Source: an uncultured delta proteobacterium (GTDB lineage Bacteria; Myxococcota; UBA727; VGSZ01). Taken from it: a stretch of DNA of 64,000 nucleotides. The translations under genes and the position numbers were made by a program. Below are positions 4,105 through 23,993 of this stretch, piece after piece (position 1 is the stretch's first letter; the number at the start of each line of letters is the position of its first letter). The notes under the pieces are model-generated. The model searched no databases, had not been told where the DNA came from, and was given only the letters and a program-made list of their open reading frames with translations. The stretch lies in NCBI GenBank assembly GCA_963775425.1, contig CAVZJB010000014.1, positions 64,001-128,000 on the forward strand, given 5' to 3'.

Positions 4105-5892
<1,788 letters not shown>

Positions 5893-5929: not shown

Positions 5930-6673
5930 TCACACGACGAGGCCGCCGTCCACGTTGATGACGGCGCCGGTGATGTAGCTCGCGTCGTCGCTGGCGAGGA
6001 ACGCGTACACCGCCGCGATCTCTTCAGGCTTCGCCAGGCGCTGCAGCGGTGTGCGCTCGCTCATCGCCGCGAGCACGCTCTGCGGCACGGGCGCGGTCAT
6101 GGGCGTCTCGACGAAGCCGGGGGCCACGGCGTTCACGCGCACGTTGCTCCGTCCGAGCTCGCGCGCGAGGGTCTTGGTGAGGCCGATGACGCCCGCCTTG
6201 GACGCCACGTAGTTCGACTGGCCGAAGTTGCCCGTGTGCGCCACCACCGAGGCGGCGTTCAGGATGACGCCGTGCTTTTGCACCTTCATCTTGGCCGCGG
6301 CGGCCTGAGAGAGGCGGAACACGGCGGTGAGGTTGACGGCGATGACCTTGTCCCAGTCGTCGACGCTCAGCTTGCCGACGGACGCGTCACGCGTGATGCC
6401 GGCGTTGTTCACGAGGACGTCGACGCCGCCCTCCATGGCTTCCGCGACCGCGGTGAGGCCTTGCGCACTTGCAACATCGGCGGCGACGTAGCGCACGCGC
6501 GCGCCGGGGGCGTCTTCGGCGCCGAGCGCTGCCGCCAGCCCCGTCTCCGAGAGCGGCCGCAGGTCGACGGCGATCACGCGCGCGCCCTCGTCGAGAAATC
6601 GCCGCGCCGTCGCGAGCCCGATGCCGCTCGCCGCGCCCGTCACCACCGCCGTCTTGTCTTTGAGTCCACGCAT
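5930..6673 (-). CDS. phaB: Acetoacetyl-CoA reductase PhaB / FabG-like SDR
   Basis: TGAASGIG, NNAGITRD, GNFGQSNYVASKAG (YxxxK), NAVAPGF; lies next to phaR and phaC. Confidence 0.78.
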   Translation of the reverse strand: MRGLKDKTAVVTGAASGIGLATARRFLDEGARVIAVDLRPLSETGLAAALGAEDAPGARVRYVAADVASAQGLTAVAEAMEGGVDVLVNNAGITRDASVGKLSVDDWDKVIAVNLTAVFRLSQAAAAKMKVQKHGVILNAASVVAHTGNFGQSNYVASKAGVIGLTKTLARELGRSNVRVNAVAPGFVETPMTAPVPQSVLAAMSERTPLQRLAKPEEIAAVYAFLASDDASYITGAVINVDGGLVV

Positions 6674-6733
6674 GATCGCTCCTGGGAGAGAAAGGGTGCG
6701 CGGCCAACGTGCGCGCCTGCGGGCTGCGCACGT

Positions 6734-6745
6734 TGCGCCGCACAA
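6734..6745. promoter_or_regulatory. Putative PhaR operator upstream of phaB
   Basis: TGCGCCGCACAA; same TGC-N3-GCACAA core as the sites at 7077 and 8185. Confidence 0.5.
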
Positions 6746-6755
6746 ATCGAGGTGC

Positions 6756-7016
6756 TTAGGCGAGCATCGCGCGGGCGCCGTTGACGAAGGCGCGGCCGGC
6801 CTCATGCATCGCGTGCGCCTGGGCGGCGGAGTAGCGGCTCGACTCCTGCACGGTGCGCTCCCACTCGGCGAAGCCCTTCTCCATGGCGGCCGCGCTCTCG
6901 TCGAGCATCCGCTGGGCCTCGCCCCGCCAGAACTGGGTGAGCGTGTAAAACGGCGCGGCCGCGTCGGCTGGGGGGGTGCGGGGGGCGGTCTTCTGCTCGG
7001 TCTTGTTGTCGCTCAC
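6756..7016 (-). CDS. Small helical protein, probable phasin/granule-associated protein
   Basis: GTG start with strong SD (AAGGAGGA, 7021-7028); 86 aa, amphipathic; between phaR and phaB with a PhaR-like box upstream. Function inferred from context. Confidence 0.6.
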   Translation of the reverse strand: MSDNKTEQKTAPRTPPADAAAPFYTLTQFWRGEAQRMLDESAAAMEKGFAEWERTVQESSRYSAAQAHAMHEAGRAFVNGARAMLA

Positions 7017-7043
7017 GGTGTCCTCCTTGGTGTGAGTGACCGC

Positions 7044-7072
7044 AAGCTAGGCAGCGCTCGCAACTGCGTCAA
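7044..7072 (-). promoter_or_regulatory. Sigma70-type promoter for the phasin-like gene and phaB
   Basis: TTGACG (7072-7067), 17-nt spacer, TAGCTT (7049-7044). Confidence 0.6.
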
Positions 7073-7076
7073 GGAT

Positions 7077-7095
7077 TTTTGTGCAACGCACAAAA
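7077..7095. promoter_or_regulatory. Palindromic PhaR-box-like operator
   Basis: TTTTGTGC-AAC-GCACAAAA: perfect 8-bp arms, AT-rich, immediately upstream of the -35 hexamer. Confidence 0.7.
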
Positions 7096-7115
7096 CCACC
7101 GGATCCGCCCGATCA

Positions 7116-7137
7116 GCGACCGGAGGGAGCGGCCGCG
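7116..7137 (+). repeat. REP-like intergenic repeat copy
   Basis: GCGACCGGAGGGAGCGGCCGCG, matching the copies at 3969 and 34502. Confidence 0.65.
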
Positions 7138-7216
7138 CTTGATCAGGGTCGCCGTCCGCGCGACGCGGGGGACGAGCCCCCGCCCTGCGGGGCGCCGGAG
7201 CGGCCGAGGACCGGGT

Positions 7217-7795
<579 letters not shown>

Positions 7796-7859
7796 GTCCC
7801 GTACGTAGGAGACCGGTGCGCATCCGTCAATCGGACGATTCCGATCCGGCGCGCCCGGA

Positions 7860-7910
7860 TGTGCGAATGCACAAAACCCCCTTGACAAATCCGCGCCCGC
7901 CCGGCTGAAT
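7860..7910 (+). promoter_or_regulatory. PhaR-box-like site plus promoter of the nine-gene operon
   Basis: TGTGC-GAAT-GCACAAAA (7860-7876), then TTGACA (7882-7887); weak -10 (CTGAAT) 17 nt later and 7 nt before ATG 7918. Confidence 0.55.
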
Positions 7911-7917
7911 CCGCGCC

Positions 7918-8892
7918 ATGACGGGATCCGATCGCATGCTGCTTCGCAACATCGAGCCCGGTTCGAGCGCGGCCCTCCGCCCCGAGGACGTGCCCGCCGT
8001 CGTCGACGACGCCACCCTCGCCGCGGTCCTGCGCGCCGGCCGCCCCGACGAGCTCGTCTCCGGCGCACAGCGCGGCCTCCTCACCGTGCGCGGCCTCGCT
8101 TGCCCCACCATCGCCGCCGGCAGCGGCCGCCCCGTCCTCTGCGTGCACGGCCTCGGGCACGACGCGTGGGACTTCGGCCCGCTCTTTGTGCGATGCACAA
8201 AAGCCGCGTCGCTCCTCGCGTTCGACCTCCCCGGCTTCGGCCTCGCGGACAAGGTCCCGCCCGCCTCCGCGCCCGCACAGACGTTCGACATGGAGCTGTA
8301 TGTCGAGGCGCTGCTCGCGGCGGCGGCGCTCGCGCCGGAGCCGCCGGTGGTGGTCGCGTCTTCCCTCGGTGGCCACATCGCGCTGATCGCCGCCATGCGC
8401 GCGCCCCGGGCGTTCGCCCGCCTGGTGCTGGCGGCCCCTGGTGGCCTCGTCGGCGCGCCCGGCCCGCTGCAGGCCCTGCTCCGCGCCTACTACGCCGTGG
8501 ACTCCATCTGCGCCCGCAGCGAGCAGGAGCTCACGAGCAACAGCCACAAGATCTTCGCGCGCCGCGGCCTCGCCGCCGCCGACGCGCTCGCGGCGCGCAA
8601 GCTGGCGGTGCACCGCTCCGCGCGCAAGCGCGAGTTCGCCGTGCCGTTCGCCGGCATCGTCGACGACGTGTTTCGTCACGTCATCATGGACCGCGTCGCC
8701 GACGTGCGCGTGCCCACGCTGATCCTGTCGGGCGAGCGCGACGTCGTCGTCCCCCCCGACGCCTGCGCCACGGCCGCCCGCCGCATGGGCGCCCGCTTCG
8801 TGTCCTTCCCCGGCGTCGGGCACTGCCCGCACCTCGAGATCCCCGACGTCTTCGCCGACGCCGTCGTCACCTTCATCCACGGAGAAGCATGA
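7918..8892 (+). CDS. Alpha/beta hydrolase (esterase/depolymerase-like), cytoplasmic
   Basis: VHGLG, DLPGFG, nucleophile elbow ASSLGG, GERDVVVP, GHCPHLE. Confidence 0.8.
   Translation: MTGSDRMLLRNIEPGSSAALRPEDVPAVVDDATLAAVLRAGRPDELVSGAQRGLLTVRGLACPTIAAGSGRPVLCVHGLGHDAWDFGPLFVRCTKAASLLAFDLPGFGLADKVPPASAPAQTFDMELYVEALLAAAALAPEPPVVVASSLGGHIALIAAMRAPRAFARLVLAAPGGLVGAPGPLQALLRAYYAVDSICARSEQELTSNSHKIFARRGLAAADALAARKLAVHRSARKREFAVPFAGIVDDVFRHVIMDRVADVRVPTLILSGERDVVVPPDACATAARRMGARFVSFPGVGHCPHLEIPDVFADAVVTFIHGEA
8185..8201. promoter_or_regulatory. Intragenic PhaR-box-like palindrome
   Basis: TTTGTGC-GAT-GCACAAA inside the CDS, using codons unusual for this GC-rich gene (TTT, CGA, ACA, AAA). Confidence 0.55.
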
Positions 8893-10612
8893 TGTTGCCC
8901 GGAGACTGGACCGAAGGCCTCGCGCGCCTGTTCTCGGAGAGCATCGCCGTCGTCGACGAGCGCACCGGTGAGCGCGTCAGCTACCGGGCCCTCTTCGCCC
9001 GCACCAGCGCCACCGCCGCCGCGCTCCAGGCGCTCGGCGTCGAAAAGGGCGATCGCGTCGCCGTGCTCGCCAAGAACCGGCTGGAGCACCTCGAGCTCAT
9101 GTTCGCCTGCGCTCGCCTCGGCGCGCTGTTCCTCCCGATGAACTGGCGCCTCGCGGAGCCCGAGCTCGGCTACATCCTCGACGACGCCGAGCCGTCCGTC
9201 CTCTTCTTCGAGCCGTCCTTCGCAGACGCCGCAAACCGCTTGTGCGCGGCACGCAACGTGCGGGCGCTCGGGCTCGACGGCGAAGAGGGCCTCGAGAAGC
9301 TCGCGCGCGCCGGCGCCAAGCAGGCGCCGGTGAAGCAGGCGCCGCTCGGCGAGGACGATCCGTGGCTCATCCTGTACACCTCGGGGACCACCGGCCACCC
9401 CAAGGGCGCGCTCCTGCCGCACCGGCAGGTCGCGTACAACGCGCTCAACACCATCGTCGCCCTGGACCTCGCCGCGGCCGACAAGACCGTCACCTACACG
9501 CCGCTGTTCCACACGGGCGGCCTGCACGTCCTCACCACGCCGCTGCTCATGAAGGGCGGCACCGTGGTGCTCGCCGACGGCTTCGAGCCCGAGCGCTTCC
9601 TGCAGCTCAACGCGCGCGAGCGCTGCACGCTCCTGTTCGGCGTGCCCACCACGTTCGAAATGATGGCGCAGGCGCAGGCGTTCACCGACGTCGATCTGTC
9701 GTCGCTGCGCGTGGCCCTGTGCGGCGGCGCCCCGTGCCCGCTGTCGCTGATCGAGCGCTACACCAGGCGGGGCATCGTCTTCAAACAGGGCTACGGCCTC
9801 ACCGAGGTGGGGCCCAACGTGCTCAACCTCAACGCCGAGGACGTCGTCAAGAAGGCGGGGAGCGCCGGCCGCCCCAACCTCTTCATCACCGCCCGCATCG
9901 ACGGCGACACCGCGCACACGGGCAAGGGCCGCGGCGAGCTGCTCCTCGGCGGGCCGTGCGTGTGCCTGGGCTACTGGCGCAAGCCGGAGGCCACCCGCGC
10001 CGCGTTCACGGCGGACGGCTTGTTCCGCACCGGCGACGTCGTCGAGGTGGACGCCGACGGCTTCATGACCATCGTCGACCGCGCCAAGGACATGTTCATC
10101 TCCGGCGGCGAGAACGTGTACCCGGCGGAGGTCGAGAAGGTCCTCGCGGATCATCCCGCGGTGCGCGCGGCGGCCGTGGTCGGCATCGCGGACGCGCGCT
10201 GGGGCGAGGTCGGCCGGGCGTACGTCGAGGCGCGCGAGGCCGTGGAGCCTGCGGCGCTCGTGCAGTTCGCGCGGGCGCGCCTCGCCGCCTACAAGGTGCC
10301 GAAGGACGTCGTCGTCGTCGACGAGCTCCCGCGCAACCCGAGCGGCAAGGTGCAAAAGCACCTGCTGTCCCGCGCCCCCACCGCGGCCGCGGCGCCGTCG
10401 TCGTCGACACAGGCGTCGTCGACACGGGCGTCCTCGACACGGGCGTCGTCGACACAGGCGTCGTCGACACAGGCGTCCTCGACACAGGCGTCCTCGACAC
10501 AGGCGTCCTCGACACAGGCGTCGTCGACACAGGCGTCCTCGACGCAGGCGTCGTCGTCCGGCTCTGCGGCGCAGGCGCCCGGCGCCGCGCCGCGCCGCAA
10601 GGAGGCGCGCGC

Positions 10613-10616
<4 letters not shown>
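8889..10616 (+). CDS. Acyl-CoA synthetase (long-chain fatty acid--CoA ligase-like) with repetitive tail
   Basis: YTSGTTGHPKG, GYGLTE, FRTGD, DRAKDMFISGGENVYPAEVE, LPRNPSGK; ATGA overlap with the upstream gene. Confidence 0.9.
10401..10550 (+). repeat. 10 x 15-bp tandem repeat encoding (SST[Q/R]A)10
   Basis: Unit TC[G/C]TCGACAC[A/G]GGCG, counted directly. Confidence 0.9.
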
Positions 10617-11631
<1,015 letters not shown>

Positions 11632-11632
<1 letters not shown>

Positions 11633-12690
11633 TGGCCGAGCGCGCGGTGATGCTCGCTTCGTGCGCGGCGCTCGTCGTCGCGTCGTCGTGCGTGACGCCG
11701 GGTCTTCACACCACCGCCGCGCCGGCCACCGCCGGCGACGGCACGCGCATGGTGCAGGTGCGCGGCGCGTGGCTCCGCGTGCTCGCGCTCGGGCCGCCGC
11801 GAGGGCCGAGCCCCGGCCCGTCGGCCGCCGACGCTGACGCTGACGCCGACGCCAACGCCGTCGCCGGCGCCGGCGACGCAGCCGGGGGCGCCGGCGCGCC
11901 GGTGGTGTTCGTGCACGGCTTCGGCTCTCGCCTCGAGGCGTGGAAGCTCGTGCAGCCCGAGGTGGCCAAGACGCGGCGGACGCTGAGCTTCGATCAGCGC
12001 GGCTTCGGGCTGTCCGAGCGCGCAGAGGGCGCGTACGGGCCCGAGTCGCACGCCGCCGACCTGCTCGCGCTCCTCGACGAGGAGCACATCGATCGCGCGG
12101 TGCTGGTCGGCCACAGCTACGGCGCCGGCGTCGTGCTCCGGCTCGCCCTGCGTCACCCCGAGCGCGTCGCGGGGATCGTGCTCGTGTCGCCGTTCGCGCT
12201 CGACGAGCAGGTGGGCTCGTACTTCCACTGGGCGATGGTCCCCGGCCTCGGCGAGGCGATGTTCAGCGCGCAGTTCCGCGACTTCCCCGGCGAGAAGTAC
12301 CTGCTCGCGTTCGGCCCCGAGGCCAGGAAGAAGTACGTCTCCGTCGCCGCGCTCGACGAGGTGCAGCGGCTGCAGGCGAAGGACGGCTCCACCTACGCCG
12401 CCCTCGCCACCATCCGCGGCATGGACTACGCGTCCGTCGAGGACGCGTACGCGAAGATCGCGGTCTCCGTCACGGTGGTGTGGGGCGAGAAGGATCGTGT
12501 GGCGCCCATCAAGCGCCTCGAGACGTTCGCCGCCAAGCTCCCTCACGCGCGCTTCGTGCGCGTCCCGGGCGTCGGCCACATGCCGCCGTGGGAGAAGCCC
12601 GACGTCGTCGTCGACGCGGTGCTCGGCGCGCGCGACGCGCCGACGCGCCAGGCCGACACCGACGCGGGCGCCGCGGGAGGTGCGCGGTGA
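11632..12690 (+). CDS. Alpha/beta hydrolase lipoprotein (exported esterase)
   Basis: TGATG coupling; lipobox-like VASSC; VHGFG, DQRGFG, GHSYG, WGEKD, GHMPPWE. Confidence 0.82.
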
Positions 12691-14195
12691 GCGCGTTGGC
12701 TTTCGCCTTCGTCGCCGCGCTCGCGGCGCGCACCGGCACCGGCGACCCCGCCGAGATCTTCCGTGACAAGGATCCGCAGAGCGACCTCGTGCTCCACGGC
12801 CAGCTTCGCCTGCGCTCGGCGCTGTACAACAACCTCGAGCTCGACCGCCGCCTCTTCAAGCCCGACGCGCTCTTCCCGCAGGGGCTCGTCCTCGGCAACG
12901 ACGCGCGCGTGCGCCTCACGCCCTCGTTCTTCATCGGGGACGACCTGCGCGCGTTCCTCGACGTCGACCTCGTCACCGCGTCGCTCGGTGAGCCGGCGAG
13001 CGGCGGGCCCTACACGGTCCACGACCCGTTCCAGTCGTCGTTCCTCGACGTGCGCGCCGCCGGCGTCGACTGGCTCCTGCCCGTGGGCGTGCTCTCCATC
13101 GGCCGCATGCCCTCGCACTTCGCGCTCGGCATCGCCGCCAACGACGGCGCCGACCTCGACGACGACAACGGCGATCACGCCGACCGCGTCGCCCTCGTCC
13201 TGCCGCTGTACGGCCACCTGCTCGCCGCCGCCTTCGACGTCCTCGACCCGAACGCCCACACGCCGGGCTCGGCGCCCGCGGTGGGCGAGCAGGCGGTCAC
13301 CCTCGGCGTCATGAAGTGGCGCGCGCCCTGGGAGATCGCGCTGTACCGGGACGCCGGCCGCGCCGTCTTCGACTACGGCCTCGCGCTCAGCGCGGAGTGG
13401 TCGCTGAAGGACGCGCCCGGTCCGTGGGCGCTCATCGATCAACAGCTCGAGCCCGACGTCACCGTCGTCCGTCACGACACGCACCTCTTCGTCGCCGACG
13501 CGTGGACGCGCCTGGTGTTCGGCGCCGTGCGGCTCGAGGCCGAGGGCTTCGTCAGCGACCTCGGCATCGACAACCCCTCCGCCATCCCCGGCGTCGACGT
13601 GCGCGAGCCCATCACGGGCAACCCCGCGGCCGCCGCGCTCGTCGCCGACGTACGCGCCTTCGACGACGCGAGCGCCGACGGCGCGCACGCGCTCCTCGAG
13701 CTCGGCGCCGCGTCGGCGGATCCGGCGCCGGGCTTCCCCGCCGCCGACCCGACCACCGCCGCGGGCGCGCGCCCCGGCGACGTCTTCGGTCCGCAGGTCG
13801 TGTTCGTGCGCGACATGCGCTTCGACGCCGCGCGCATGCACCCGCTGCACCGCGTCGACCTCATCCTGTGGCGCACGCTGCTCGGCGGCGTCTCCGAGGC
13901 GGGCTACGTGCGGCTCAACGTCGCGGGCTCGCCGCTGCCGTGGCTGCGCCTCGAGGGCAACGCCATCTATTCGCAGGCGTTCGCCCCGGGCAGCGCCCCC
14001 GGGGGCGTCGGCCCCCTCGGCGTCGAGGTCGACGGCGCCGCCGTCGTCAGCGCGCCCTTCGCCCCCGGCGTCTCCCTGCGCGTCGACGCCGGCAACCTCT
14101 TTCCCCTCGGCGGGCTCGCCGACCTCGGCGGTTCGCCGACGTCGGTGTCGTCGTGGGCGCAGATGGTCATCGTGAGGCTCGGCTATGCGCTTTGA
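12687..14195 (+). CDS. Outer-membrane beta-barrel, TIGR04551-like
   Basis: GTGA overlap; GRMPSHFALGIAANDG..DDDNGDHADR motif; alternating beta strands; C-terminal VRLGYAL. Confidence 0.65.
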   Translation: MSALAFAFVAALAARTGTGDPAEIFRDKDPQSDLVLHGQLRLRSALYNNLELDRRLFKPDALFPQGLVLGNDARVRLTPSFFIGDDLRAFLDVDLVTASLGEPASGGPYTVHDPFQSSFLDVRAAGVDWLLPVGVLSIGRMPSHFALGIAANDGADLDDDNGDHADRVALVLPLYGHLLAAAFDVLDPNAHTPGSAPAVGEQAVTLGVMKWRAPWEIALYRDAGRAVFDYGLALSAEWSLKDAPGPWALIDQQLEPDVTVVRHDTHLFVADAWTRLVFGAVRLEAEGFVSDLGIDNPSAIPGVDVREPITGNPAAAALVADVRAFDDASADGAHALLELGAASADPAPGFPAADPTTAAGARPGDVFGPQVVFVRDMRFDAARMHPLHRVDLILWRTLLGGVSEAGYVRLNVAGSPLPWLRLEGNAIYSQAFAPGSAPGGVGPLGVEVDGAAVVSAPFAPGVSLRVDAGNLFPLGGLADLGGSPTSVSSWAQMVIVRLGYAL

Positions 14196-14226
14196 ACGCC
14201 CCCGGCGGGGGACAAGCCCCCGCGCC

Positions 14227-15072
14227 ATGACGGTGCTCGTCGTCGTCGCCGCCGTCGTCGCGGCCGGGGCATGCGCGCCCGCGCCCGCGCCGGAGGACAC
14301 GCTGTTCACGCCGGTGGTGCTCCCCGCGTGCAACGCCAACGCCGACGGCATCATCGAGCACGACGAGATGCCGTTCGTCGTCGGCGCCACCGCGCGGGTG
14401 CGCGTCGGCGAGAACGTCCCCGTCGACGTCGCCGGCGCGCCCGCCAGCTCCGTCGGCGGCGGGGGCAGCGCGCGGGTGTGGGACCTCTCGCGCCCCGACC
14501 CCGACAGCGAGCCGGTGGGCCTCCTCACGCTGCAGTCGATGGACGGCCAGTGGTTCGCCGGCGACTTCCCGGACGCCGACTACGCCGGCCCCCTCGCGCC
14601 GGGCGGCGGTCTGCTCGGCCCGCTCGTCGTCGACGCCGACGGCGTCAAGCTCCTCGGCTCCGTCAGCGCCGACGAGAGCCCGCCGGAGGGACGCACCGAG
14701 CTCGCCTATCAGGACCCGGTGATGCTCTATCCGTTCCCGCTCCAGGTCGGCACCCACGCGGTCACAGAGACCCAGGCCGTCGACGGGGTGGCCCAGGGCA
14801 TCCCCGTCGCCGTCGACGACACCTACACCATCGACGTCACCGCCCACGGCAAGGTCATCCTCAAAGACCTCGTCCTCGAGGACGCCCTGCGCGTCACCGT
14901 GCGCCTCGAGCGCGTCCCCGTCGCCGGCATCGCCGTGCAGCAGGTGACGCAGGTGTTCGTCAACGAGTGCGTCGGCGAGGTCGCCCGCTTCGTGTCTCCG
15001 TTCGTCCCCCTCGACCAGGAGCTGCCCGACGACTTCGACGTCGCCGAGCAGGTCTGGCGCCTCTCCCTGTAA
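14227..15072 (+). CDS. Lipoprotein, paralogous to the C-terminal domain of 10613-11632
   Basis: MTVLVVVAAVVAAGAC lipobox (alternative start 14185). Shared motifs: WD[LF], DGQWFA.[DT]F.D, Y..P....FP, D.Y...ID..G, LR, C[VL]G.[VI]A. Confidence 0.72.
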   Translation: MTVLVVVAAVVAAGACAPAPAPEDTLFTPVVLPACNANADGIIEHDEMPFVVGATARVRVGENVPVDVAGAPASSVGGGGSARVWDLSRPDPDSEPVGLLTLQSMDGQWFAGDFPDADYAGPLAPGGGLLGPLVVDADGVKLLGSVSADESPPEGRTELAYQDPVMLYPFPLQVGTHAVTETQAVDGVAQGIPVAVDDTYTIDVTAHGKVILKDLVLEDALRVTVRLERVPVAGIAVQQVTQVFVNECVGEVARFVSPFVPLDQELPDDFDVAEQVWRLSL

Positions 15073-15108
15073 CCCCTTGCCCGCACCCCCATCGACCCAG
15101 GAGAAACC

Positions 15109-15327
15109 GTGTCGACCGACAAGAAGCAACAGCCGCTGCCCGAAGAAGCGCTCGACAAGATGATCAGCCTCATCGAGGGCCCCATGAACACCGCCGGCGA
15201 GAAGATCCTGTCGTCGACGATCGTCCTCGCCCCCCTCTCCCTCGGCATGGACCTCTCCATGCGCGCGCTCGCCCGACTGCGCGGCGCCGTCGACAACGAT
15301 CGCTTCGGAAAGAAGGCCCGCCGATGA
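15109..15327 (+). CDS. 72-aa protein coupled to phaC
   Basis: SD AGGAG before GTG; GC3-rich codons; ATGA overlap with phaC. Confidence 0.6.
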   Translation: MSTDKKQQPLPEEALDKMISLIEGPMNTAGEKILSSTIVLAPLSLGMDLSMRALARLRGAVDNDRFGKKARR

Positions 15328-16430
15328 TGACCGAGATCCTTTCGCGCAGCGGCTTGTTCAGCGCCGTCCCCACCGCGCTCGCCCGCATGAACGGCGCCAT
15401 GATGCTCGCGCGCGTCTCCCTCGATCGCACGCCGGCCCCGGTGGCGCCGTCGCCCGCCGTGGTCATCGCCACCGAGGGCGCCGCGCAGCTCATGCGCTAC
15501 GAGGCCGTGCCCGGCGTCGCCAAGAAGGACCCGATCCTCTTGTGCCCGAGCCTCATCAACCGGCTCTACGTGCTCGACCTCAAGGAGGGCATCTCCGTCG
15601 TCGAGGTGCTCAGAAAGGCCGGCCACACCGTCTACGGCATCGACTGGGGCGAGCCCGGCGAGGCCGAGCGCGGCGTGCGGTTCGAGGGCTTCGTGCGCCG
15701 CCTGCAGCGCTTCCTCGAGGTCGGCTGCGCCGACGCCGGCGTCGAGCGCATGCACCTGCTCGGGCACTGCCTCGGCGGCACCATGGCCACCGCGCTCGCC
15801 GCCACCGACGACAGCCGCATCCAGAGCCTCATCAACCTCACCGCCCCCGTCGCCTTCCACGACGCCGGGCTGTTGTCCAAGTGGACGCGCGCGCCGTTCT
15901 TCCACGCCGAAAACGTCGTGCGCGCCGTGGGCCACGTCCCGCCCTGGCTCACGCAGCCGGCGTTTCAAATCTTGAAGCCCATGGGGCAGCCGTCGAAGGC
16001 GCTGCGCCTGTTCCAGTCGCTCGACAAGCCGCAGTTCCTCGAGTTCTTCCGCTGCCTCGAGACCTGGATCAACGACAACGTCTCCATCCCCGACGCCTTC
16101 TTCGTCGACCTCGTCGAGGTGCTCTACAAGAAAGACGGCCTCGTCACCGGCAAGCTGCACTTCGCCGAGGGCCCGGTGGTGCTCGAGGAGGTCACGGTGC
16201 CGCTGCTCACGGTGGCGGCCGCCGAGGACCACATCGTGCCCAAGGACTCCGCGCTCGCCGGCGTCGCGCGCTTCTCCTCGAAGAAGAAGCGCACCGAGGT
16301 GCTCCCCGGCGGCCACATCGGCGTCGTCGTCGGCGGCCTCGCCCGCCGCCGCTTGTGGCCGCTGCTCCTCGAGTGGCTCGAGGAGACCGCGCTGCCTCCT
16401 CCCGCCATGAAGCTCGAGGTGCTCCAGTGA
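15324..16430 (+). CDS. phaC: PHA synthase PhaC, class III/IV-type (about 368 aa)
   Basis: PILLCPSLINRLYVLDL, IDWGEP, lipase-box-like GHCLGG (catalytic Cys), EDHIVP (Asp), GGHIG (His). Confidence 0.88.
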   Translation: MMTEILSRSGLFSAVPTALARMNGAMMLARVSLDRTPAPVAPSPAVVIATEGAAQLMRYEAVPGVAKKDPILLCPSLINRLYVLDLKEGISVVEVLRKAGHTVYGIDWGEPGEAERGVRFEGFVRRLQRFLEVGCADAGVERMHLLGHCLGGTMATALAATDDSRIQSLINLTAPVAFHDAGLLSKWTRAPFFHAENVVRAVGHVPPWLTQPAFQILKPMGQPSKALRLFQSLDKPQFLEFFRCLETWINDNVSIPDAFFVDLVEVLYKKDGLVTGKLHFAEGPVVLEEVTVPLLTVAAAEDHIVPKDSALAGVARFSSKKKRTEVLPGGHIGVVVGGLARRRLWPLLLEWLEETALPPPAMKLEVLQ

Positions 16431-17632
16431 CCGCCATCGCCGCCGCCGCGCGCGGCGCCGGCGTCGCCGTCGACGGCCGCGCCCGCCAGCTCGCCATCGG
16501 GGCGTTGATGCCGATGGTCTACATGCTCTTCGGCGTCACCTGGCTCGCCTACGTGCCGCTGCTCCCCGAGGTGGCCAAGAGCGTCGACAAGCCCATCCCC
16601 GAGGCGGCGTTCCTCATCGTCGTCATCTCGTGGGCCAAGAGCTTCGTGCCCATCCTCGCCGGCATCGTCGCCGCGCGCATCGGGCTCACCAACGCACTGC
16701 GCGTGGGCGGCGTCCTCGTGCTGGTCGGCGCCGCCGCCCCGTGGATGCACAGCTACGGCGTGGCCGTGGCCGTGCGCTTCCTCTTCGGCATGGGCGGCGC
16801 CGTGTGGGTGACGCTTATGGGGCCGGTGGTGCTGGCGTCCCTGTCGCCGTCGCAGCGCCCGGTCGCCAACGCCGTCAACGGCGTCGCCGTCAACGCGGGC
16901 ATCGTCATCGCCTACGCGGTGACGTTGCCGCTCGCGAAGCTCATCGGTCCGCAGTGGGCGCTGACGCTCGCGAGCGTGCTCACGGGCGCGTGCCTGATGG
17001 CGCTCGGCTTCTGCGGCAAGCTCGGCGACGTCGCGCCCGTCTCGGTCTTCGGCACGCTCAAGGCCTACGCGCGCACGCTCAAGCTCCCGGCCACGTGGAT
17101 CCTGGCGGTGGCCTTCTGCGGCCCGCTCGCCTTGTACCTGATGCTGAACACGTACCTGTCGCAGCACCTGATCGCGGCGTACCACCTGGACCGCAGCGCG
17201 GCGTCGCACTGGATGATCTGGCTGAACATCTGGGCGCTCCCCGCGTCGCTGTTGTCGGGCGTGCTCCTGCGCCGCTTCAAGACCCCGGTGCCCATGCTGC
17301 TCGCCGTCGTCATCGCGCCCGTCGGCCTCTACGTGGCGCTGTCCGGCGAGGGCGACGTCGCGCGCGCCGTCGGCTTCGTCCTCGTCGCCGTCGGGATGTT
17401 CCTCCCGGTGTCGCCGCTGGTGACGACCGTCCAGAAGATCCCCGGGATGTCGCCGCAGGACTTCGGGATGATCGTCGGGACCATGTTCGCCGTGAGCTAC
17501 GTGGTCTCCTCCGCGATCCCCACCGCCGTCGCCCCCCTGGTGGCGCACGGCGTCGCGCTCGGGACCCTCCTGTCCGCCGCCGGCCTGCTGGGCCTCACAC
17601 CGCTGGTGGGCCTTCTGCTCAAACGCTCGTAA
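16427..17632 (+). CDS. MFS transporter
   Basis: About 12 TM segments; G..AARIG motif A-like; VRFLFGMG; GTGA overlap with phaC. Confidence 0.8.
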   Translation: MTAIAAAARGAGVAVDGRARQLAIGALMPMVYMLFGVTWLAYVPLLPEVAKSVDKPIPEAAFLIVVISWAKSFVPILAGIVAARIGLTNALRVGGVLVLVGAAAPWMHSYGVAVAVRFLFGMGGAVWVTLMGPVVLASLSPSQRPVANAVNGVAVNAGIVIAYAVTLPLAKLIGPQWALTLASVLTGACLMALGFCGKLGDVAPVSVFGTLKAYARTLKLPATWILAVAFCGPLALYLMLNTYLSQHLIAAYHLDRSAASHWMIWLNIWALPASLLSGVLLRRFKTPVPMLLAVVIAPVGLYVALSGEGDVARAVGFVLVAVGMFLPVSPLVTTVQKIPGMSPQDFGMIVGTMFAVSYVVSSAIPTAVAPLVAHGVALGTLLSAAGLLGLTPLVGLLLKRS

Positions 17633-18450: not shown

Positions 18451-19572
18451 ATGTCCCGCCGGCTTCGAGGGGAGCACGCCCGCCGCGTCGGCGGCGTCGC
18501 TGGCGCCTGCGTCGCCGTCGCGCTCGTCTCCGGCTGCGGCGACGTCGCGCCGCTCGGGAGCGCGGGCCCCGTGGCCGGCGTCGACGACGACAGCGGCGTG
18601 CCCGTGCAGCTCACGGGCACCGGCGTCGCCGAGCGCGAGGGCTTCGTCCCCCTCGGGCCGCCCTACCCGATCATCCTCGTGCACGGCTTCTCGGGTTGGG
18701 ACGACATCGGGCCCGTCGGCTACTTCTTCCAGGTGAAGCAGGCCCTCGAAGACGACGGCGACGACGTCACCACCCCGGCGCTGCCGCCGTACACGAGCTC
18801 CGACGAGCGCGCGCGCGTGCTCGCGAACGTCATCGACGACGTCCTCGCGCGCACGGGCAAGCGCGAGGTGCACCTCATCGGCCACAGCCAGGGAGGCATG
18901 GACATCCGCCGCGTGGTCGGCGGCATGGGCTACGGCGCCGCCGGCAAGATCGCCTCGGTGACGACGATCTCCACGCCGCACCAGGGCACCGCCGTCGCCG
19001 ACCTCGCCGCTTCCGCCCCCGACGGCGTCTTGAACCCGGCGGGCCAGCTCTTGCAGTGGCTCCTCGGCGCCGGCGGCGCGCCCCCCGACCAGGCGAGCTG
19101 GGCCAGCGACGACACCAGCGACGCCTGGACGCCCGACCTCGCCGACTCCATCCGCAGCCTCACGCCCGCGGCCGCGCGTGAGCTCGCGGCGCACAACCGC
19201 ATCCCCGCGGACATCCCGTTCTTCACCGTCGCGGGCGTCTCCAACCTGCGCTCGCTCGACAACCCGCAGTGCGCGGCGTCTCTGTGGGGCCGCGGCGACG
19301 CCGTCGACGACACCGACCCCCTGCTCGTCGCCTCGGGGACGTACCTGTCGTTCACCGACGGCGGCGACGTCGGCCAGCCCACGCCCAACGACGGCCTCGT
19401 GACGGTGGCCTCGGCGCGGGCGCCGGAGAGCACGTTCCTCGGCTGCGTCCCCGCCGACCACTTCGACGAGATCGGCCAGGTCGCCGACGTCATCCCCGAC
19501 ATCATCTCGGGCTGGGACCACGTGGCGTTCTACCGCCGGCTGGTCGCGCAGATTCGTACGACGGAGCAATGA
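18451..19572 (+). CDS. Triacylglycerol lipase (family I-like), lipoprotein
   Basis: YPIILVHGFSG, GHSQGG, STPHQGT, NDGLV, DHFDEIGQ; lipobox VSGC; SD GGGAGG. Confidence 0.88.
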   Translation: MSRRLRGEHARRVGGVAGACVAVALVSGCGDVAPLGSAGPVAGVDDDSGVPVQLTGTGVAEREGFVPLGPPYPIILVHGFSGWDDIGPVGYFFQVKQALEDDGDDVTTPALPPYTSSDERARVLANVIDDVLARTGKREVHLIGHSQGGMDIRRVVGGMGYGAAGKIASVTTISTPHQGTAVADLAASAPDGVLNPAGQLLQWLLGAGGAPPDQASWASDDTSDAWTPDLADSIRSLTPAAARELAAHNRIPADIPFFTVAGVSNLRSLDNPQCAASLWGRGDAVDDTDPLLVASGTYLSFTDGGDVGQPTPNDGLVTVASARAPESTFLGCVPADHFDEIGQVADVIPDIISGWDHVAFYRRLVAQIRTTEQ

Positions 19573-23030: not shown

Positions 23031-23993
23031 CTACATGGGCAGAAAGAACTTGAGCGAGCACGCGAACACGCGGTGATCAAACCGGACCACGCTCTGCTGG
23101 TAAGCCACGTCGAGCCCGAAGTACGGGACGATGAAGCCGGCGCCCACCGTGACGAGCTGGTCGTCGGTGGCCTCGTCCCACAGGTAGCCCGCGCGCAGCG
23201 GGACGGAGTCGAACGCGAGGTACTCGAGGCCCCCCGACACGCGGCTCTTGGGCCCGTACAGGGTGAAGAAGTTGATGTTCCAGTCCACCTCGAGCGTGAG
23301 GCCGGAGAGCGGGCCGACGAGCTGCCCCAACGTCGACGGGGCCGAGAGGCCGGCGGCGGTGGGCGTGGGGCCGAGCGCGGGCCCGCCGCCGAAGATGAGC
23401 GCCGACAGCGGGCCGAGGTCGAGGTTGGCGCCGAAGCCGGCGGCGAGGGGCGCCCGCTGCGATTGGATGGGGATCAGGTTGTAGCCGACGGCGGCCAGCG
23501 ACAGCCCGAACGGCAGCCGCGACAGCACGCCGACGTCGGCGGAGAGCGCGTTCAGGTAGTTGCCGAGGACGGCGTCGGAGACGTTGACGTACTTGAGACC
23601 GGCGCCGACGGCGAGGAGCTGGTCGAAGACGGGCACCGCCAGCGCCAGCGTGGCCTTGTGCTGGAGCGAGGCCCGCTTGGTGAGCTCGCGGCCGTCAAAG
23701 GTGTAGCCGAGGCCGGCGGCGACCTTGGAGGTCTTGCTGTCGACGACGCTGACGTCGACGGTGTGCTCCTCCTTGTCGAGGTCGAGCGCGTAGTGCAGCT
23801 CCGGCGAATACCGCGGAATCACGACGAGGCCGGCGGGGTTGAAGTAGATGGCGTCGTTGCCCGTGGCGTTGGCGCGGTACGCCTCGGCCAGCGACAGGGC
23901 CCGGGTGCCCACGAAGTCCTGCGCGTGCGCCGCCGCCGGGGCGAGCGCGCATGCGACGAGCACGAAGGCGAACCGGGTCACAGCGGACAGCAT
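23031..23993 (-). CDS. Outer-membrane beta-barrel (FadL/PorV-like N-terminus)
   Basis: Signal peptide ending AHA-Q; GTRALSLAEAYRA...AIYFNPAGL; LRAGY; terminal beta strand. Confidence 0.65.
   Translation of the reverse strand: MLSAVTRFAFVLVACALAPAAAHAQDFVGTRALSLAEAYRANATGNDAIYFNPAGLVVIPRYSPELHYALDLDKEEHTVDVSVVDSKTSKVAAGLGYTFDGRELTKRASLQHKATLALAVPVFDQLLAVGAGLKYVNVSDAVLGNYLNALSADVGVLSRLPFGLSLAAVGYNLIPIQSQRAPLAAGFGANLDLGPLSALIFGGGPALGPTPTAAGLSAPSTLGQLVGPLSGLTLEVDWNINFFTLYGPKSRVSGGLEYLAFDSVPLRAGYLWDEATDDQLVTVGAGFIVPYFGLDVAYQQSVVRFDHRVFACSLKFFLPM

Follow-up and report, generated by a model that had tools for sequence, protein, structure and literature searches.

The DNA analysed here is a 64,000-nucleotide stretch from an uncultured delta proteobacterium (GTDB lineage Bacteria; Myxococcota; UBA727; VGSZ01; assembly GCA_963775425.1, contig CAVZJB010000014.1, forward-strand positions 64,001 to 128,000), which we call the window. 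Positions 5930-17632 of the window hold a twelve-gene locus that encodes a polyhydroxyalkanoate (PHA) synthase, PhaC, and a PHA-type regulator, PhaR, together with a predicted outer-membrane beta-barrel and predicted lipoproteins. PHA metabolism is usually treated as a cytoplasmic process that involves a synthase, phasins, a regulator, and a depolymerase. We define the envelope block of this locus as four genes: lip1, lipest, barrel, and lip2. Judged from sequence comparisons, both the linkage of this block to PhaC and the control of the locus by PhaR are well supported: most sampled genomes with the block have a PhaC on the same contig, and the block and phaC, once separated, keep the same palindrome, which fits two published PhaR-box consensus sequences. 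Our favoured reading, to which we assign a probability of roughly 0.42, is that the organism's single PHA locus forms one PhaR regulon with an embedded salvage route, by which an ester would be cleaved and the resulting acid imported, activated, and stored.

A prediction made earlier from the DNA letters alone (the original prediction) had joined the barrel and lipoprotein genes to phaC and phaR in a single system. In relatives, the block is indeed co-conserved with phaC and phaR, and the linkage extends well beyond the genus. Our sample comprised 401 genomes of the phylum, among which related genomes are non-independent samples. Homologues of lip2 were found in 70 of these genomes (E <= 1e-5), mostly as paired matches approximately 3.2 kb apart, and PhaC-like matches were found in 183 (E <= 1e-10). 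By a hand tally among the matches listed, PhaC lies on the same contig as lip2 in at least 54 of the 70 genomes, mostly within 4 kb of it and at most about 14 kb away; a further 101 PhaC matches fall outside this tally, and five of the 70 genomes have no listed PhaC place. The 11 lip2 genomes that lack a PhaC on the same contig comprise five of genus g4, three of family f24, and three fragmented assemblies. When we examined one f24 locus (L031, genome G130), we observed lip2 and barrel beside genes for a divergent PhaC-like protein, a FadD11-like ligase, and a short-chain dehydrogenase/reductase (SDR). This 474-residue PhaC-like protein (L031:7534-8958) matches the class III synthase model TIGR01836 at E 2e-6, and the Cys of its EGYCGHG sequence aligns with the PhaC Cys; the PhaC search at E <= 1e-10 missed it, and f24 was tallied as having no PhaC. 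All homologues of lip2 and barrel for which a source is named derive from metagenome genomes of myxobacteria or 'deltaproteobacteria', in which they are labelled hypothetical or TIGR04551.

The full twelve-gene order is repeated in genus g3 of the same family (genomes G002 and G006, and G004 on a short contig). Genome G013, from another family of the same order, keeps this gene order minus the major facilitator superfamily (MFS) gene, and G141, from family f32 of the same phylum, keeps it minus both the MFS gene and est. G039 and G227 carry these parts in a different arrangement, together with a second PhaC paralogue. Altogether, five families (f1, f4, f8, f14, and f32) have PhaR, SDR, PhaC, the ligase, and the run lip1-hydrolase-barrel-lip2 in varying order, with the ligase and PhaC being the conserved cytoplasmic partners of the block. 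Twenty loci were found through lip2 alone; 10 of them carry phaC, two carry other cluster genes, four have usable flanks with no cluster genes in them, and four are too short. These loci show the block to be a discrete module, situated in a PHA locus in most cases though not in all. As a separate observation, none of the 21 sampled genomes of family f6 (G015-G037), which belongs to the order of the window, has a lip2 match, and one of them has a weak, partial PhaC match (E 8e-4); these genomes measure 0.3-3.4 Mb, in contrast with the 8.3-Mb genome studied here.

The palindromes that tie the locus to PhaR have the form TGTGC-N3/4-GCACA. Exact copies occur at 7080, 7860, and 8187, with no others in the window (0.10 + 0.09 expected). 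The 8.26-Mb genome contains seven, of which three lie within 1.1 kb of one another at this locus. The other four were considered as PhaR boxes and set aside, as three are intragenic and one lacks AT-rich arms, and they are probably chance occurrences. A search that allowed one mismatch operated at chance level (three found, 2.36 expected). The sequence YTKNTGCRNYGCANMAR, which the available text of PMC12849132 gives as the motif deduced for R. eutropha PhaR, has two exact matches in the window (7078-7094 and 8185-8201), against 0.01 expected. The S. meliloti PhaR motif, W2N2YGCRNYGCRN2W2 in the available text of bioRxiv 10.1101/2025.02.17.638283, has three matches in the window, namely the same sites at 7078 and 8185 and one within phaR; this number is near chance, as 0.85 matches are expected and three or more turned up in 6 of 100 shuffles. 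At the level of sequence, then, the PhaR control that the original prediction had proposed is borne out, since the palindromes fit the published PhaR-box consensus, and we infer that PhaR binds to them.

The box at 7078 lies on the minus strand upstream of the small gene s86, 6 nt 5' of a TTGAC sequence, which is a placement that would be expected for a phasin promoter, and it is kept in loci L021, L022, L024, and L028. The site at 7860, which is the sole exact window match to TGTGC-N4-GCACA (0.09 expected), lies 9 nt 5' of a TTGACA sequence, read by eye, ahead of the nine-gene operon. Compared with the consensus, this site has one extra base at its centre; in L021 and L022, the orthologous sites are spaced as in the consensus. 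The box at 8185 lies within est, approximately 270 nt past the start codon, and we saw no counterpart at this position in either L021 or L022. Intragenic PhaR sites are known for R. eutropha phasin genes, according to the available text of PMC12849132. We counted 23 copies of the palindrome, most of them adjoining cluster genes, in 412 kb of sequence (the window plus 26 loci), where about 1.2 would be expected by chance (extrapolated). In genus g4, where the cluster is split, the palindrome lies upstream of lipest-barrel-lip2 in one locus (L030) and upstream of s72-phaC in two others (L023 and L027). The block and the synthase seem to have kept one operator after their linkage was lost.

The cytoplasmic part of the locus comprises PhaR, a reductase, PhaC, and two small proteins. 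PhaR matches PF07879 (PHB_acc_N) with 91.1 bits (cut-off 25) and TIGR01848 with 100.1 bits, slightly under the cut-off of 109.45. A perfect GCT repeat of 12.7 copies (7252-7289) encodes 12 consecutive glutamines close to the C terminus of the protein. The SDR, whose orthologues in syntenic loci share 60-74% identity with it, scores 230.5 bits against the acetoacetyl-CoA reductase model TIGR01829 and does not reach the cut-off of 302.1; FabG models score higher, at 266-268 bits, and are likewise below cut-off (TIGR01830 266 bits, cut-off 298). Profile searches with s86 gave no family match, including to the phasin family PF09361. This small gene is kept between phaR and the SDR gene in L021, L022, L024, and L032, and its L032 orthologue has a weak Phasin_2 match (E 0.005, below cut-off), so that we regard s86 as a phasin-like protein and a candidate phasin.

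PhaC scores 206.3 bits against TIGR01836 (cut-off 365.3), and the PhaC-like proteins of cluster relatives score 27-278 bits, all below that cut-off. It aligns to C. necator PhaC (5hz2) at E 1e-22, with GHCLGG, AEDHIVP, and GGHIGVV matching the corresponding motifs, the Cys, Asp, and His of which we take to be catalytic. Polymerisation of 3-hydroxyacyl-CoA is the predicted activity of this protein, which is the sole PhaC that we found in the 8.26-Mb assembly (94.5% complete). The deep branches of the PhaC tree are not resolved. PhaC-like domains also match the N-terminal third of NF005898, a 994-residue acyl-CoA synthetase model, with 25-85 bits, which suggests that PhaC-like and ligase activities are fused elsewhere and that the two cooperate; in the present locus, they are encoded by separate genes. 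Presumably, NF005898 (PRK07868) represents mycobacterial proteins tied to lipid droplets.

The small gene s72 lies directly upstream of phaC even in the split clusters (L023 and L027), and by this position its product is a candidate synthase partner. Profile searches gave no family match for s72, and a search of 1.84 billion proteins yielded 41 representatives of its own family, with lengths of 47-116 residues in nearly all cases. We considered whether s72 is a truncated PhaE, which the sequences do not support, given that PF09712 matches 0 of 9 and 0 of 39 family members and that hhalign returns an E value of 0.019 and a probability of 2.5%; a common position and one short common motif remain. 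PhaE (PF09712) has no match in the 94.5%-complete genome, which is weak evidence, as control genomes also lack a match. In G227, a 98-residue protein at the position of s72 matches the C-terminal region of PhaE (PF09712 37.7 bits, cut-off 25.7) and is named PhaE by one source.

Turning to the envelope block, profile searches gave no family match for either lip1 or lip2. The two proteins are 28% identical to one another (E 2e-9) and are thus paralogues, as had been proposed. Orthologues of lip1, lipest, and lip2 begin with lipoprotein signals that terminate in Cys, and orthologues of barrel begin with a signal of the signal-peptidase-I type. An AlphaFold2 (AF2) model of lip2, with a predicted local distance difference test (pLDDT) score of 90.9, is an all-beta, open barrel. 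Foldseek returned nothing for this model at E <= 0.001. In the VIA structural search, its best match is 4fvs, a putative lipoprotein of Parabacteroides (Z 9.4; 172 aligned residues, root-mean-square deviation [rmsd] 3.9), followed by YmcC (Z 7.3) and by DUF1849, LmcA, lipovitellin, and LolA entries (Z 4-7; LolA 4-5), and a neighbour cluster in the Atlas carries the automatic name 'outer membrane lipoprotein-sorting protein family'. The modelled fold of lip2 resembles lipid- or acyl-binding open barrels.

The barrel protein scores 164 bits against TIGR04551, below the cut-off of 300; a partial call of the barrel gene in G227 scores 244.8 bits, and many barrel homologues are named TIGR04551 by one source. 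No Pfam match was found for it at E <= 0.01, including to the OprD/OccK and AlgE families, and we found no literature under the name TIGR04551. Its AF2 model is all-beta (pLDDT 76.7). The top Foldseek match is AlgE (E 4e-14), and the VIA search gives nearly equal scores for AlgE (Z 24.8), MOMP (24.6), and OccK1/2 and OpdL (24.5), with rmsd values of 3.2-4.2 Å over 323-370 residues. We take AlgE, MOMP, and OccK/OprD to be 18-stranded barrels. Many Arg, Asp, and Glu positions are invariant in the alignment of barrel homologues. A second TIGR04551 gene in the genome (C16) scores 455 bits; on a BLAST gene map, no lip1 or lip2 lies around it, and a weak lipest-like hydrolase lies approximately 4 kb away. 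We also observed, in two related metagenome-assembled genomes, that hydrolase and barrel occupy one stop-free open reading frame (ORF) with a signal-like segment between them (L046:6522-9473, 983 aa; L049:6981-9764, 927 aa), which could reflect either a genuine fusion or the loss of a stop codon.

The two hydrolases of the locus carry serine-nucleophile motifs, ASSLG in est and GHSYG in lipest. By eye, est has no signal sequence; lipest has a lipobox, VASSC, and a low-complexity tether. The est gene is present in family f1, G013, and L042 and is absent from G141 and G227. The ligase scores 445 bits against NF004837, a long-chain-fatty-acid-CoA ligase model (cut-off 476), and its nearest solved relatives are a fatty-acyl/feruloyl-CoA synthetase and FadD13. 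A 15-bp tandem repeat at 10383-10577 (10.5 copies, 93% matches) encodes an SSTQA-like tail of this protein; orthologous ligases are 492-517 aa long, compared with 575 here, so the tail is lineage-specific. The MFS carrier has orthologues in L021, L022, and L026. Other lineages have other carriers, as a Na+/solute symporter gene overlaps the phaC stop codon in G141 and a Na+/solute symporter gene follows phaC in G013, and in L039 and L044 an MFS gene nearest to the D-galactonate subfamily (TIGR00893, 152-163 bits, cut-off 395) directly follows lip2. We presume that the D-galactonate transporter subfamily consists of anion:cation symporters. Na+/solute symporters and anion:cation symporters are uptake carriers. 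The strongest pointer to inward transport is that three of the four carrier types are uptake-class or unclassed.

The favoured salvage route would run as follows. In the envelope, the tethered serine hydrolase lipest would cleave an ester substrate, and lip1 and lip2, with their putative YmcC/LolA-like fold, would hold the hydrophobic substrate or product, which the large barrel, resembling solved 18-strand channels, would pass across the outer membrane. The carboxylic acid thus freed would then be imported by an inner-membrane symporter; its likeliest identity is a 3-hydroxyalkanoate or short oligomer. In the cytoplasm, the acyl-CoA ligase would form the CoA thioester, and the class-III-like PhaC, with its coupled small partner s72, the phasin-like s86, the SDR reductase, and the repressor PhaR at hand, would polymerise this thioester directly, so that a thiolase would not be needed. 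The nascent polymer would titrate PhaR off its boxes and thereby lift the repression of the whole set. The ligase and PhaC would be sufficient as a minimal route from free 3-hydroxyacid to polymer. We favour uptake over export, because symporters replace the carrier in other lineages and because the ligase and PhaC suffice for an imported 3-hydroxyacid. We infer the localisation of the proteins, the direction of transport, the identity of the substrate, the specificity of the ligase, and the role of s72 as a synthase subunit. More tentatively, the genes could be viewed as a 'polyester utilisation and re-storage locus', in which a dedicated envelope-to-granule route delivers external (R)-3-hydroxyacids straight to the PHA synthase. 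These acids could come from the PHA of other cells or from hydroxy fatty acids ester-linked in the lipid A of prey, and PhaR would respond to newly made polymer by opening the entire route. Scavenging would then join central metabolism in supplying PHA storage.

The original prediction had likewise proposed that external esters are cleaved, taken up, and fed to PhaC. The co-conservation of the block and the PhaR-box palindromes agree with this proposal, but the hydrolases do not match the extracellular polyhydroxybutyrate (PHB) depolymerase family and the fold of the barrel ties with that of the exporter AlgE. Several observations weigh against salvage. The nearest solved relatives of est and lipest are generic esterases. 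Neither protein matches the extracellular PHB depolymerase family PF10503 at E <= 0.01 or any curated PHA depolymerase model above its cut-off (for the intracellular short-chain-length PHA depolymerase model NF050089, the hydrolases score 47-63 bits, cut-off 300), and the six PF10503 matches found elsewhere in the genome place depolymerase candidates outside this locus. By its matches, the ligase is of a generic fatty-acyl-CoA-ligase type with no assignable specificity. The MFS carrier of the window has no solved relative by sequence and only generic Atlas neighbours, and its subfamily is not classable; for the adjacent MFS of G227, the nearest models are of the antiporter/exporter type (TIGR00900, EntS), and its scores against them all stay below cut-off. 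The barrel fold is a tie among OccK/OprD uptake porins, MOMP, and the alginate exporter AlgE, and with such a tie among large monomeric barrels the model would speak for a substrate channel and be silent on direction. The SDR points also to a de novo route. Family f10 (G073, G096, G108, G112, and G134) has two PhaC-like genes 3-4 kb apart and no lip2 match at E <= 1e-5. Conversely, the block occurs without PHA genes in L038, L041, L044, and L047, all of which have usable flanks, and in L044 and L047 it also lacks the palindrome. Finally, PhaR regulons can be broad, so co-regulation alone is no proof of a common carbon flux.

The alternative that survives best, which we nevertheless consider unlikely, keeps the same pipeline and changes the cargo. 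In this case, lipids or fatty acyl esters, whether from prey, from the environment, or as the (R)-3-hydroxy fatty acids of lipid A, would be processed, and the ligase-activated carbon would reach PhaC partly via the SDR. The ligases are nearest to long-chain fatty-acid-CoA ligase models, namely NF004837 in the window and FadD11-like in G227 and G130; the modelled fold of lip2 resembles the lipid binders LolA and LmcA and those of lipovitellin type; and penicillin-amidase-family and phosphatidylserine decarboxylase genes follow the block in L042. However, no beta-oxidation, enoyl-CoA hydratase, or acyl-CoA dehydrogenase genes were seen in any cluster, the barrel is not FadL-like and has its best matches among barrels known as 18-stranded, and the conserved partners of the block are PhaC and PhaR, not fad genes.

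Somewhat less probable again is that the module serves envelope maintenance or transport without contributing to PHA carbon flux, and that a broad PhaR regulon switches it on together with storage. The available text of bioRxiv 10.1101/2025.02.17.638283 describes an S. meliloti PhaR regulon that reaches far beyond PHB genes and in which approximately 30% of the PhaR-activated genes (complex medium) have membrane-transport functions. The four loci with the block and no PHA genes also favour this reading, but the physical linkage with PhaC, the ligase, and the SDR survives five or more families and their rearrangements. Moreover, stop/start overlaps pack the block between the ligase gene and phaC, and the f24 locus that we examined retains a divergent PhaC-like gene beside lip2 and barrel.

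We consider it distinctly improbable that the module works outward, exporting a locus product or displaying it at the cell surface; the product could be 3-hydroxyacids or oligomers that est frees from granules, or a hydrophobic ester. The top structural match of the barrel is the alginate exporter AlgE, but the OccK uptake porins score about equally well. YmcC, which is presumably part of a capsule-export operon, is among the matches of the lip2 model, and the G227 carrier is nearest to antiporter/exporter-type models; against these, four loci have Na+/solute or anion:cation symporters at the carrier position, no polymer-scale inner-membrane exporter is present, and an activating ligase would be unnecessary for export. 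That the envelope genes are mere chance neighbours within the PHA locus of this lineage is very improbable: operon-like packing alone can come from insertion, but the linkage is kept in most lip2 genomes among the matches listed, the palindrome stays with the block and with phaC after their separation, and its frequency in the loci far exceeds the extrapolated chance number.

Parts of the salvage route have counterparts in known systems. Like class III (PhaEC) and class IV (PhaRC) loci, the locus has a short PhaC of approximately 360 aa with Cys-Asp-His and a small coupled gene; unlike them, the PhaCs of these clusters score below the TIGR01836 cut-off and s72 shows no PhaE homology. To our knowledge, phaEC and phaRBC loci carry no envelope genes. 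The PhaR-phasin circuit of Cupriavidus necator, Paracoccus, and Sinorhizobium shares with it a PHB_acc_N PhaR, consensus-fitting boxes beside the putative -35 elements of a small phasin-like gene and of the divergent operon, and an intragenic site, whereas the predicted sites described here also lie ahead of outer-membrane and lipoprotein genes, even where these are unlinked from phaC. The cytoplasmic genes amount to a PhaR-controlled variant of the class III/IV synthase loci already known. For the envelope half, we found no described counterpart among PHA loci in the literature, as judged from abstracts and listings.

The barrel shares with OprD/OccK porins and AlgE a large monomeric fold (Z 24.5-24.8 over 320-370 residues) and conserved charged strand positions, but it is TIGR04551-like, has no sequence-family match, and is always flanked by two lipoproteins and a hydrolase. 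The original prediction had compared the locus to a polysaccharide utilisation locus (PUL). The logic of the SusCD PULs of Bacteroidota is indeed alike, in that a surface or periplasmic hydrolase, binding lipoproteins, and an outer-membrane channel are co-regulated with cytoplasmic use of the product. The components differ, because the present locus has a porin-class channel, putatively YmcC/LolA-like lipoproteins (lip2 being all-beta in its model), and PhaR in place of a TonB-dependent 22-strand SusC, a SusD-type lipoprotein, and a hybrid sensor; profile searches of the locus proteins gave no match to TonB-receptor or SusD families. In the FadL-FadD system, as here, an outer-membrane channel for a hydrophobic carboxylic acid is coupled to an acyl-CoA ligase. 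Unlike that system, the best matches of the barrel are not FadL, additional lipoproteins and a hydrolase are present, and the linkage is to PhaC instead of fad genes.

In this phylum of mostly uncultured soil and water bacteria, gene linkage and a predicted PhaR operator connect a PHA synthase with a module of four outer-envelope proteins. Should this module supply the synthase, scavenged monomers could be built into stored polyester, which would bear on carbon turnover, the physiology of predatory bacteria, and enzymes for bioplastic recycling. The analysis predicts that the PhaR regulon extends to the outer membrane, gives testable roles to the orphan TIGR04551-like barrels, the lip1/lip2 family, and s72, and draws attention to a clade of class-III-like synthases whose putative partner is unusually small.

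The coordinates of the locus are collected in the table. The original prediction had described three genes divergent from nine co-oriented genes, and all twelve ORFs were recovered where it had placed them; in this DNA of 72% G+C (68-76% over the window), a caller based on codon-position G+C (GC3) selects the same twelve from among many mechanical ORFs. The six stop/start overlaps that it had counted at eight junctions also hold. They consist of ATGA at 8889 (est/ligase) and 15324 (s72/phaC), GTGA at 10613 (ligase/lip1), 12687 (lipest/barrel), and 16427 (phaC/MFS), and a one-base overlap, TGATG, at 11632 (lip1/lipest). The barrel and lip2 genes overlap by 11 nt if lip2 starts at 14185, which is the start that agrees with its orthologues, and a gap of 36 bp separates lip2 from s72 (before 15109). 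Orthologue alignments likewise begin at 7795 for PhaR, which we take as its start, and at 6673 for the SDR, which makes this the most likely start instead of 6805. A scan for terminator-like sites returned six, compared with 4.0 ± 1.8 in shuffles; all are intragenic and therefore give no argument for operon breaks. A strict sigma-70 scan found no promoter. In agreement with the claim that phaA is missing from the locus, family profile searches found no thiolase among the genes between 705 and 23981. The family names given to PhaR, the SDR, the hydrolases, the ligase, the barrel, and the MFS carrier stand, and the names 'phaB' and 'phaC' were assigned to proteins that score below the curated cut-offs of the named families.

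Table. Genes and predicted PhaR sites of the PHA locus, in window positions
Feature	Position	Strand	Basis
SDR reductase, PhaB/FabG-like, 247 aa	5930-6673	-	PF13561, 210 bits; syntenic orthologues
s86, small helical protein, candidate phasin	6756-7016	-	Conserved place between phaR and SDR
Predicted PhaR box 1, upstream of s86	7078-7094		Exact match to both published consensus patterns
PhaR regulator, 192 aa, poly-Q tail	7217-7795	-	PF07879
PhaR-box-like palindrome beside TTGACA (7883-7888), putative nine-gene operon promoter	7860-7873		TGTGC-N4-GCACA
est, predicted cytoplasmic alpha/beta hydrolase, 324 aa	7918-8892	+	Abhydrolase_6, 84 bits
Predicted PhaR box 3, within est	8185-8201		Exact match to both published consensus patterns
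Acyl-CoA ligase, 575 aa, SSTQA-repeat tail	8889-10616	+	AMP-binding, 283 bits
lip1, predicted lipoprotein, lip2 paralogue	10613-11632	+	Lipoprotein signals in orthologues
lipest, predicted lipoprotein serine hydrolase, 352 aa	11632-12690	+	Abhydrolase_1, 113 bits; lipobox
Predicted outer-membrane beta-barrel, TIGR04551-like, 502 aa	12687-14195	+	TIGR04551, 164 bits; AF2 model
lip2, predicted lipoprotein, modelled open beta-barrel (YmcC/LolA-like) fold	14185-15072	+	AF2 model
s72, small protein, candidate synthase partner	15109-15327	+	Overlaps phaC start
PhaC-like PHA synthase, class-III-like, 368 aa	15324-16430	+	TIGR01836, 206 bits; aligned Cys/Asp/His motifs
MFS carrier, 401 aa	16427-17632	+	MFS_1, 71 bits

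Three neighbouring genes lie outside the locus. An MsbA-related ABC exporter gene at 4105-5892 (TIGR02204 686 bits, cut-off 780) is convergent with the SDR gene, 38 bp apart from it, and is not in the conserved cluster of L021 or L022. Approximately 800 bp 3' of the MFS gene and on the same strand, an alpha/beta-hydrolase-like gene (18451-19572) has a weak match to a lipase model. Farther along, the gene at 23031-23981 encodes a PorV/PorQ-family-like outer-membrane protein, with a weak match of 42 bits against a cut-off of 90.

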